From IMG/VR virus record IMGVR_UViG_2563366944_000006: a stretch of 4,729 nucleotides of DNA, one strand, 5' to 3'. Made by a program: the position numbers and the translations under genes. This DNA comes from a virus (Duplodnaviria; Heunggongvirae; Uroviricota; Caudoviricetes). Within the stretch, counting starts at the first letter, position 1; each line of letters opens with the position of its first letter. This document shows positions 785 through 2,848 of this stretch, piece by piece. Below the pieces are notes generated by a model. That model was not told where the DNA came from, did not search any database, and saw nothing but the letters and a program-made list of their open reading frames with translations.

Positions 785-2848
785 ATGACAGTAAAAATTT
801 CTGGCGTGCTTAAAGATGGCACAGGAAAACCAGTACAGAACTGCACCATTGTGCTGAAGGCCAGACGAACCAGCAGCACGGTGGTGGTGAACACGGTGGC
901 CTCTGAAAATCCGGATGAAGCCGGGCGTTACAGCATGGATGTTGAGTATGGCCAGTACAGCGTCACCCTGCTGGTTGAAGGTTTTCCGCCTTCACATGCC
1001 GGGACCATTACCGTCTATGAAGGTTCCAGACCAGGTACGCTGAATGATTTTCTCGGTGCCATGACGGAGGATGATGCCCGTCCGGAGGCACTGCGCCGTT
1101 TTGAGCTGATGGTGAATGAAGTGGCACGTCATGCCGGAGCGTCATCACAGAGTGCAGCGGCGGCAAAGAAATCCGAAACGGCAGCAGCCTCATCGAAGAA
1201 TGCAGCGAAAACCTCAGAAACGAATGCAGCTAACAGCGCACAGGCGGCAGCGGCCTCGCAGACTGCATCGGCAAACTCCGCGACAGCAGCCAAAAAATCA
1301 GAAACCAGCGCGAAAAATAGCGAGACAGCCACAAAGGCCAGCGAAAAAAACGCAAAATCCAGCCAGACGGCAGCGAAAACCAGTGAGACGAATGCCAAAG
1401 ACAGTGAAGCCAACGCAAAGGTGAGCGAAACAGCGGCGGCGAACTCGGCGAAAGCATCGGCAGCAAGCCAGACGGCAGCAAAAGCAAGTGAAGATGCTGC
1501 CAGAGAATACGCAAACCAGACAGCAGAGCCGTACAGATATGTTTTACAGCCGCTGCCGGATGTGTGGATACCCTTTAATGATTCGCTGGATATGATTACG
1601 GGCTATTCTCCGGGTTATAAAAAAGTGAAGATTGGTGATAATGTGGTTCAGGTTGCCAGTGATAAACAGGTTAATTTCAGTCGCGCATCAACGGCAACAT
1701 ATATCAACAAATCTGGCGAACTGAAAACGGCGGAAATTAATGAGCCACGATTTGAGTGTGATGGCCTGCTTATTGAGGGGCAAAGAACGAACTTCTTCCC
1801 GAACAGTACAGACCCTTCGAAGTGGAATAAGTCAACTTCACTGGACGTTACAGAAACAGGCACAGATAGTTTCGGGTTTAATTATGGCCGGTTTGTCGTA
1901 CAGGATTCGATTGTTGGTACAAGTAAAGCGCATACCATTATCGGACTGTATTCGAGTACCGGAGGGGTTGATACTTCAGGGGACGAAAAGCATGTAACTA
2001 TATCCTGTCGGGTAAAAAGTGAAGTTGATAATATCGCCGTTCGTATTTTATTTGAACATTATGATGGGGAGGTAAGGACATCAATAGGAGCAGCAAACCT
2101 GAACCTTACCACCCGCATAATTAGCAAGACAGGTCAGACAAGCCGTGTTACAGCAAGGTCTGTTAAGGATGATGCAACTGGCTGGATATTTTTTGAGGCT
2201 ACATTAAAAGCAGATACAACAGAAAATACGGTTGGTGGTTTTGTCCAGTATTCTCCGGATACAGGGCAGATGGTTGCATCAGGGGATTATCTCGATGTAA
2301 CCACTCCACAGATTGAGGCTGGTACAGGCGCATCATCTTTTATTGTTACGGGGACGGCACCGGTAACGCGGGCAAGCGATATGGTTACAGTTCCGATTAA
2401 GAATAATCTTTATAATCTTCCTTTTACGGTTCTTTGTGAGGTACATAAGAACTGGTATAAAACGCCAAATGCAGCACCGCGTGTTTTTGATATCTGCGGT
2501 CATCAGGCCGGTGCGGGGATCGTAATGGGGTTTGGTTCATCAGGTGGGTACGACGGTTTTCCGTATTGTGATATAGGTGGTTCAGACCGACGAATAAATG
2601 AAAATGCCGGGCTGGAAAAAATGCTTATTGGTATGCGGGTAAAGTCCGAACGGTCCACATGTGTAGTCAGTAACGGTAAGTTAAGCAGCGAAACTAAAAC
2701 CAAATGGGAATATATCCGGAGTACAGCAACCATTCGCATTGGTGGACAAACTACAGCAGGATTACGCCATTTATTTGGGCATGTGAGGAATTTTCGTCTC
2801 TGGCATAAAGAGCTAACAGATGCGCAGCTTGGGGAGGTTGTGGAGTGA
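785..2848 (+). CDS. stf: Side tail fibre protein (lambda Stf-like N-terminus and repeat shaft; divergent C-terminal receptor-binding region)
   Basis: 687-aa ORF; GGTGG Shine-Dalgarno at 774-778. N-terminal ~110 aa (MTVKISGVLKDGTGKPVQNCTIVLKARR...GRYSMDVEYGQYSV...FPPSHAGTITVYE...TLNDFL.AMTEDDARPE) matches my recollection of lambda Stf (orf-401) nearly residue for residue. Residues ~120-240 are degenerate SET-N/A-AK repeats typical of the Stf shaft. The C-terminal ~400 aa is unlike lambda Stf; the ending ...NFRLWHKELTDAQLGEVVE resembles the end of concanavalin/LamG-like lectin domains (weak, memory-based). Confidence 0.9.
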   Translation: MTVKISGVLKDGTGKPVQNCTIVLKARRTSSTVVVNTVASENPDEAGRYSMDVEYGQYSVTLLVEGFPPSHAGTITVYEGSRPGTLNDFLGAMTEDDARPEALRRFELMVNEVARHAGASSQSAAAAKKSETAAASSKNAAKTSETNAANSAQAAAASQTASANSATAAKKSETSAKNSETATKASEKNAKSSQTAAKTSETNAKDSEANAKVSETAAANSAKASAASQTAAKASEDAAREYANQTAEPYRYVLQPLPDVWIPFNDSLDMITGYSPGYKKVKIGDNVVQVASDKQVNFSRASTATYINKSGELKTAEINEPRFECDGLLIEGQRTNFFPNSTDPSKWNKSTSLDVTETGTDSFGFNYGRFVVQDSIVGTSKAHTIIGLYSSTGGVDTSGDEKHVTISCRVKSEVDNIAVRILFEHYDGEVRTSIGAANLNLTTRIISKTGQTSRVTARSVKDDATGWIFFEATLKADTTENTVGGFVQYSPDTGQMVASGDYLDVTTPQIEAGTGASSFIVTGTAPVTRASDMVTVPIKNNLYNLPFTVLCEVHKNWYKTPNAAPRVFDICGHQAGAGIVMGFGSSGGYDGFPYCDIGGSDRRINENAGLEKMLIGMRVKSERSTCVVSNGKLSSETKTKWEYIRSTATIRIGGQTTAGLRHLFGHVRNFRLWHKELTDAQLGEVVE

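Follow-up and report, generated by a model that had tools for sequence, protein, structure and literature searches.

The 4,729-nucleotide (nt) stretch of DNA in IMG/VR virus record IMGVR_UViG_2563366944_000006 (Caudoviricetes; "the window" in what follows) holds a gene whose 687-amino acid (aa) product starts like the side tail fibre (Stf) of phage lambda, and the question it raises is what such a fibre carries at its other end and what it might bind there. The original prediction, made from the sequence alone, held that a lambda-like N-terminus and shaft are joined at about nt 1500 to a different C-terminal receptor-binding region, and that this fits host-range module swapping. The computational analysis described here bears out the mosaic structure, and we give a probability of roughly 0.7 to the reading that the protein is a modular lambda-like Stf in which a lambda collar and stalk carry tandem lectin-like heads for multivalent, reversible binding of a surface glycan. 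It also identifies a small gene for a 92-aa protein, overlapping the end of the fibre gene, that is an obligate genomic partner of the distal module.

The N-terminus is that of a lambda Stf, as had been proposed. Pfam PF08400 (phage_tail_N) covers aa 1-131 with E 4e-68 and 228 bits against a cutoff of 26.6, PDB entry 9e7m_Ta (Ur-lambda StfN) matches aa 1-94 with E 2.5e-48, and BLASTP against lambda orf401 gives 75% identity over aa 1-158. In the DNA, blastn against lambda aligns positions 760-1173 of the window at 82.7% identity, starting 25 nt upstream of the start codon, and finds no homology beyond nt ~1173; nucleotide alignment to lambda stf, which had been suggested as the way to locate the recombination junction, therefore places the end of homology earlier than the start of the distal module (below). 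In Ur-lambda, 12 collar domains encircle the tail at the gpV/gpM junction and give rise to four trimeric fibres whose stalks are trimeric coiled coils (PMC12617516). The collar of the window fibre (aa 1-94) is ~87-90% identical to that of lambda (87% over 116 aa), so the same attachment at the gpV/gpM junction would be expected.

The stalk that follows is lambda-like in kind. Its residues, aa 115-240, are rich in Ala, Ser, Lys and Thr and their autocorrelation gives z = 8-9 at lags of 7, 14, 21, 28 and 35; the lambda stalk has the same heptad periodicity, and BLASTP between the two stalks finds only short secondary matches (aa 134-181, 65%). Tandem Repeats Finder reports no tandem repeat array in the stalk DNA, and the repeat is seen at the protein level only. 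By analogy with lambda, we presume that the stalk is a trimeric coiled coil. A distinct module of ~447 aa begins at about aa 241 (nt ~1505), where the G+C content (GC) falls from 0.55-0.56 (nt 1051-1500) to 0.42-0.45 (nt 1501-2250), so that the predicted start at 1500 lies on a true stalk/module junction. The best BLASTP match between this module and the distal part of lambda Stf (orf314) has E 1.4 and their hhalign probability is 0.08%; the claim that the C-terminus is unlike lambda's thus stands, and the size given for it, ~400 aa, has to be revised.

What the module is instead can be read from its relatives and its predicted fold. The 53 diverse relatives used for the module alignment came from an exhaustive representative search (3,106 matches at E <= 1e-3, 72 of them at E <= 1e-30); the 120 matches listed by an earlier word-indexed homologue search were all near-identical E. 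coli proteins, and the diversity described here comes from the representative search and the phage collection. With this alignment, the AlphaFold2 (AF2) monomer of aa 251-687 is all-beta, with a pLDDT of 92.5 and a pTM of 0.89, and consists of a neck and two concanavalin-A-like beta-sandwiches, called D1 and D2 here, that have the jelly-roll fold of the concanavalin A-like superfamily. Its fold matches are botulinum neurotoxin (BoNT) HCN domains, pentraxins, PAPP-A/laminin G domains and the sialic-acid-binding carbohydrate-binding module (CBM) family CBM40, and Foldseek returns the same families; the best of them are CBMs and lectins.

Domain searches of the C-terminal region, also suggested beforehand, agree with the fold. 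NCBIfam NF048003, the 'GTA head spike fibre domain', scores 72.1 bits (cutoff 36) over aa 329-530, and D2 is LamG-like. The family profile finds the head spike fibre of the Rhodobacter gene transfer agent (RcGTA; Rcc01080) with E 1.1e-39, the Pbunavirus proteins Pa193 gp46 and E217 gp45 with E 4.5e-16 and 7e-16, and a gp17 tail fibre (9OCC) with E 4e-14; over D2 it gives weak matches to BoNT/D HCN, an S-layer domain protein and C-reactive protein. D2 terminates in the conserved motif HLFGHVRNFRLWHKELTDAQL, and the earlier guess that the ending resembles LamG/concanavalin-type domains fits the fold and the family: Pfam Laminin_G_3 (PF13385) is found with E <= 0.01 in 34 of the 53 relatives (best E 1.9e-11). 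In the window protein itself the match, which lies on the ...FRLWHKELTDAQL ending (aa 630-681), scores 17.6 bits (E 0.0045), below the cutoff of 27.6, so the Laminin_G_3 homology is supported at the family level only.

The protein carries the GTA head spike fibre domain, yet it is a tail fibre and not a head fibre; the N-terminal (I/L)-G repeat that docks the RcGTA fibre on the pentameric base of the capsid spike is not present, and its N-terminus is the lambda tail collar (MTVKISGVLKDG...). Its C-terminus is the LamG-like strand motif, and Pfam detects no autocleaving Peptidase_S74 chaperone domain in the window fibre or in the 53 relatives. This type of intramolecular chaperone is seen in T5 pb1, DT57C LtfA/B and K1F. 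The DT57C LtfA/LtfB fibres were considered as relatives and rejected, as they have S74 chaperone domains and a different module.

The same module (aa ~241-686) is present at >=80% coverage in 204 phage records. Its carriers include many lambdoid phages, PhiR49_2, the classical phage 21 and mEp460 among them, and also T1-like Drexlerviridae, Dhillonvirus, Queuovirinae (Seuratvirus), rV5-like Vequintavirinae and T5-like Markadamsvirinae (AKFV33 orf137, VSe12 and IrisVonRoten Gp22). The tblastn matches in the non-lambdoid phages start at aa 241-254, and the N-terminal anchors of the relatives belong to at least three Pfam types (phage_tail_N, Phage_tail_fib and Tail_spike_N). The fusion of one module to different anchors in six phage lineages or more is module swapping observed directly, and the fibre is a well-supported, ordinary case of the host-range module swapping that the original prediction proposed.

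The conserved parts of the module are its neck and first strands (aa 251-350), the junction of D1 and D2 (aa 505-570) and the last strands (aa 651-687); the cores of D1 (aa 351-504) and D2 (aa 571-650) are highly variable, which is the pattern expected of a receptor-binding module that determines specificity. Purifying selection on the gene is indicated by dN/dS values of 0.16-0.53. D1 recombines independently of D2. The D2 core (window 2435-2734, aa 551-650) is 60-80% identical to those of VogelGryff, IrisVonRoten, JLBYU19 and LM40P1, virulent phages of four lineages, and D2 is only 26-34% identical to that of the temperate phage 21, whereas for the collar the relation is reversed and phage 21 is the nearer relative; this implies that temperate and virulent phages have exchanged segments inside the fibre head. 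Prophage alleles whose modules are ~99% identical have collars that range from ~92% to 99% identity, and exchange points thus lie at aa ~100-130, at aa ~241 and between D1 and D2.

The fibre gene does not travel with a Tfa gene. No Pfam, PHROG or NCBIfam match to Tfa/Caudo_TAP was obtained for the two ORFs (open reading frames) downstream of it, and the hhalign probability between the 92-aa family and lambda Tfa is 0.1%, i.e., they are unrelated. The absence of Tfa had been noted correctly, but the overlapping 92-aa gene had been missed, and the absence does not imply that the fibre has no helper. The GTG start of this gene overlaps the fibre stop codon (GTGA) and has GGAGG 7 nt upstream. Its homologues occur in 187 phage records, and in each they abut or overlap a fibre gene. 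In 90 of 90 loci the module gene ends within a few nt of the 92-aa gene start; these are the CE10 source locus (below), nine sequenced phages of different lineages and 80 IMG/VR contigs, the last being mostly close relatives, so that the independent weight of the linkage rests on the nine phages. The gene stands beside the module across lambdoid, T1-like, T5-like and rV5-like phages, Dhillonvirus and Seuratvirus, and IME178, an apparent exception by tblastn, has a full module when a hidden Markov model is used.

The 92-aa protein is acidic and is predicted to be a small alpha/beta sandwich (AF2 pLDDT 90.5), and its gene is under purifying selection (dN/dS 0.13-0.54). It belongs to no Pfam family, its PHROGs entry reads 'unknown function', and the structural and sequence searches returned no informative relative. 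The label 'putative lateral tail fiber chaperone' in VogelGryff, which might be taken for that of the 92-aa homologue, belongs to the next gene, of 388 aa, and is not evidence here. Its most likely role is that of a dedicated factor for folding or assembly, or of a small accessory subunit in the head. Tentatively, and at slightly less than even odds, we would go further and regard it as defining a new type of partner protein, either a dedicated chaperone or a small stoichiometric subunit that tandem-lectin heads need; fibre tip and partner would then form a two-gene host-range cassette, found in temperate as well as virulent phages, siphoviruses and myoviruses alike, that takes the place of Tfa-type and intramolecular chaperones.

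If the collar assembles as in lambda, four fibres with three heads each would give 12 heads and 24 lectin-like domains per virion. The heads may bind a surface glycan (O-antigen, lipopolysaccharide (LPS) core or capsule) weakly but multivalently, and this would allow fast, reversible adsorption and passage through the polysaccharide layer before the J tip engages the terminal receptor irreversibly. It is probable that each head folds on its own as a monomeric domain, since D1 relatives function as single subunits: the RcGTA head fibre has one subunit per spike, of which only residues 2-10 are experimentally resolved (PMC7296036), and E217 gp45 is a tail fibre attachment subunit present in single copy in its triplex (PMC10329688). 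From these single-copy homologues and the confident monomer model we infer three independent lectin-like heads per fibre, and such independent folding would explain the absence of both Tfa-type and C-terminal intramolecular chaperones.

That the ligand would be a glycan is suggested by homologues. Tagged RcGTA head fibre bound 100% to capsulated and ~4% to capsule-less cells (PMC10218006), which gives indirect support, by analogy, to carbohydrate binding by the module. O-antigen is regarded as the target of the lateral fibres in T1- and T5-like siphoviruses (PMC8594841), and the module of IrisVonRoten Gp22 has been called a 'galectin-like domain' that may serve as an additional receptor-binding domain (PMC11990801); the role proposed here for the heads matches both descriptions. 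Ur-lambda Stf binds OmpC (PMC12617516), and the receptor of the window fibre is, unlike that of lambda Stf, probably not OmpC. The 'different receptor logic' of the original prediction, which here would mean a glycan in place of OmpC, is reasonable to expect from homology.

Several points weigh against this reading. Neither the window fibre nor any close relative has a known ligand, receptor or adsorption phenotype. Concanavalin-A and LamG folds also bind proteins (neurexins) and occur in enzymes, and the conserved residues R322, F323, E331, T335, N336, Q509, E511 and S518 could form either a binding site or only the structural frame. The head model is a monomer prediction, and the oligomeric state lies outside it. 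In T5- and T1-like phages the 92-aa gene is followed by another fibre gene and the module protein is also a proximal fibre there, so the module could serve as a platform for docking and not as the principal adhesin. Finally, any role assigned to the 92-aa protein is drawn purely from linkage.

A tandem beta-sandwich head that binds an outer-membrane protein, for example a porin, and not a glycan would be in line with the OmpC binding of Ur-lambda Stf (PMC12617516) and with the protein binders (neurexins, laminin) among the LamG/BoNT-HCN-like fold matches, and the hypervariable cores would suit variable porin loops as well as variable glycans. We nonetheless think it unlikely, since the sole D1 homologue studied experimentally, the RcGTA fibre, binds capsulated cells, the top fold matches are CBMs and lectins, and the T1- and T5-like carriers have the module in their lateral fibres, which are regarded as directed at O-antigen, and read porins with central fibre proteins (PMC8594841). 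An enzymatic head, i.e., a glycoside hydrolase or lyase of concanavalin-A fold that degrades O-antigen or capsule as a depolymerase, is very improbable. The parts of enzymes that the model matches are non-catalytic lectin or CBM domains (AbnA domain 4, CBM40 and the trans-sialidase lectin domain), although sialidase domains and an arabinanase are among the fold matches and the superfamily includes glucanases; Pfam and NCBIfam give no hydrolase or lyase match; and the invariant acidic residues E331 and E511, which might suggest catalysis, lie on terminal frame strands whose conservation extends to the RcGTA fibre and to the baseplate proteins of Pbunavirus, so that their role is more likely structural.

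The remaining alternative is a scaffolding role. In IrisVonRoten, AKFV33 and IME178 the gene order is module fibre, 92-aa gene, second fibre gene; JLBYU19 has small 'tail fiber domain' genes downstream; and Gp22 has been modelled as a proximal fibre that carries a T-shaped distal fibre (PMC11990801). The module protein might accordingly be mainly a proximal fibre or scaffold for a second, distal fibre, and the lectin-like head of lambdoid phages accessory or vestigial. This is improbable for the fibre considered here: in the window, as in phage 21, only the 92-aa and 98-aa genes follow, and no second fibre gene of the kind found in branched T5-like lateral fibres precedes the opposed ykgJ-like gene. 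The lambdoid module is, moreover, intact and under purifying selection, with cores diversified like those of receptor-binding domains.

The window is the right end of a lambdoid E. coli prophage. Its identity to strain CE10 (O7:K1) is 99.4%, and 98 of 5,426 complete genomes contain 80% or more of it. In the CE10 annotation a complete lambda-like head and tail operon is followed by gpJ, an Ail/Lom gene and the fibre gene, and the region lies 5' of a host ompW remnant and the yciE-trp region. The fibre gene thus directly follows J and lom in a lambdoid tail operon, and PhiR49_2 has the same order. Features of the window are listed in Table 1.

Table 1. Genes, fibre domains and the upstream hairpin of the window, with their positions.
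Feature	Positions	Strand	Basis or remark
lom	34-633	+	
Strong terminator-like hairpin (13-bp stem and T run) between lom and fibre gene	737..766	+	
Fibre gene (single ORF), 687 aa	785-2848	+	
Collar domain, lambda gpStfN type, aa 1-94	785..1066	+	PDB 9e7m, PF08400
Linker and stalk start, aa 95-114, still lambda-homologous	1067..1126	+	blastn, BLASTP
Heptad-repeat Ala/Ser-rich stalk, aa 115-240, 18 heptads	1127..1504	+	autocorrelation
Conserved neck, aa 241-296 (PLPDVW...FSRAS), start of portable module	1505..1672	+	tblastn, conservation profile, AF2 beta-hairpins
D1, aa ~297-530, concanavalin-A-like beta-sandwich, 'GTA head spike fibre' domain family	1673..2374	+	
D2, aa ~531-687 and stop, LamG/pentraxin/BoNT-HCN-like beta-sandwich	2375..2848	+	
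92-aa ORF (phrog_1361)	2845-3123	+	
98-aa hydrophobic ORF (phrog_1443)	3133-3429	+	
YkgJ-family CxxCxxCC cysteine-cluster gene	3548-3880	-	Pfam PF03692, E 6e-12; opposed to tail operon
VapA/VapB-family gene	4066-4518	+	Pfam R_equi_Vir, E 5e-34

Phage 21 has an annotated terminator upstream of its stf at the place equivalent to the hairpin between lom and the fibre gene, and expression of the fibre may therefore depend on read-through or antitermination. All opposite-strand ORFs inside nt 1500-2848 are <=86 aa, and none has support. In some E. coli genomes IS600 splits the fibre gene within the stalk, as in L092 (NZ_OZ546943.1; 985-4315) and also H7 (NZ_CP032204.1), and PGAP (the Prokaryotic Genome Annotation Pipeline) names the C-terminal piece of such split genes 'phage head spike fiber domain-containing protein', a name that misleads where the piece belongs to a tail fibre.

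The 98-aa gene follows the 92-aa gene in lambdoid phages only, and the phage 21 homologue of its product is annotated with two transmembrane domains. Weaker homologues occur in Aeromonas phages and in Halomonas phage phiHAP-1, in the latter next to a tail-fibre-assembly gene. The protein is probably a membrane moron that lies outside the portable fibre module; a role as moron or as exclusion factor could be considered. A second terminator-like hairpin (3436-3455) lies between this gene and the YkgJ-family gene. The R_equi_Vir family comprises virulence-associated proteins of Rhodococcus equi, and its VapA/VapB-like member at the prophage end lies in an AT-rich stretch (~3750-4650, GC 0.29-0.40) whose GC is well below that of its surroundings; it looks like horizontally acquired cargo. 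Of the 15 best-matching genomes listed, 14 align only to nt 4659 and one aligns to the end of the window (4660-4729); since the alignments end there and the ompW remnant of CE10 lies just beyond, a prophage/host junction or a variable segment is probably located at this point.

Mosaic Stf genes are textbook material, and the window fibre is an expected example of fibre modularity and not a surprise. They have been exploited in engineering (PMC11338833), and the practical value of this analysis is a domain map with junctions (nt ~1173, nt ~1505 and, between D1 and D2, nt ~2375) for a fibre that is very common in E. coli prophages and is found in extraintestinal pathogenic (ExPEC) lineages, e.g., CE10, ABU 83972 and ST131-type strains. 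The map can be used in engineering lambda-based delivery particles, whose host range is set by chimeric Stf, and transplants of the fibre tip should probably include the overlapping 92-aa gene. The PGAP label quoted above should, on gene fragments, be understood as denoting a tail-fibre domain and not a capsid fibre.

Much of this architecture is already known, since it is annotated in phage 21 and PhiR49_2, the domain has its NCBIfam name and the 'galectin-like' label has been published. Compared with lambda (Ur-lambda) Stf, the window fibre has the same position after J and lom, the same type of collar and a stalk of the same heptad-repeat, Ala/Ser-rich coiled-coil type. It differs in its shorter stalk, which has about half the length of the proximal coiled coil of lambda and neither the hinge nor the distal coiled coil, in the two concanavalin-A-like domains that take the place of the Gly/His-rich distal receptor-binding part, and in having no Tfa gene. 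The Stf of Gifsy-1 binds LPS-core Gal II and might have served as a precedent, but it was rejected because it is lambda-type throughout and not a relative of the module.

Outside the lambdoid phages, the C-terminal ~435 aa of Gp22 from the T5-like phage IrisVonRoten (BASEL Bas32) are the module, at 60.8% identity, and a 92-aa homologue likewise overlaps its stop codon; it differs from the window fibre in having a T5-type N-terminal anchor in place of the lambda collar and a distal T-shaped fibre gene (Gp24) downstream that has no counterpart in the window. The RcGTA head spike fibre is homologous to D1 and shares its frame motifs, ...PRF...GLLIEG..TN... and ...PQ(I/L)EAG..(A/V)SS.I.T....TRA.D, but is a single subunit of 325 aa, held on the capsid by an N-terminal (I/L)-G repeat (IALGLGLGL), without collar, coiled-coil stalk or LamG-like D2. 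Pa193 gp46 and E217 gp45 (PDB 9B45 and 8ENV) are also D1 homologues, and these stand in the wedge (triplex) of a myovirus baseplate and not at a fibre tip.

Among the closest known systems are the side tail fibres of phage 21 (OL657228, CPT_21_22) and PhiR49_2. No functional study of either fibre was found in the literature. Both have the identical architecture, in which stf is followed by a 92-aa gene overlapping its stop codon and then by a ~97-aa membrane protein, and the fibre of PhiR49_2, a plaque-forming phage, is 98.8% identical to that of the window over its full length. Phage 21 shares 84-88% identity with the window fibre in the collar and stalk start, 42-56% in the D1 core and 26-34% in D2, and the two fibres represent different specificity alleles.

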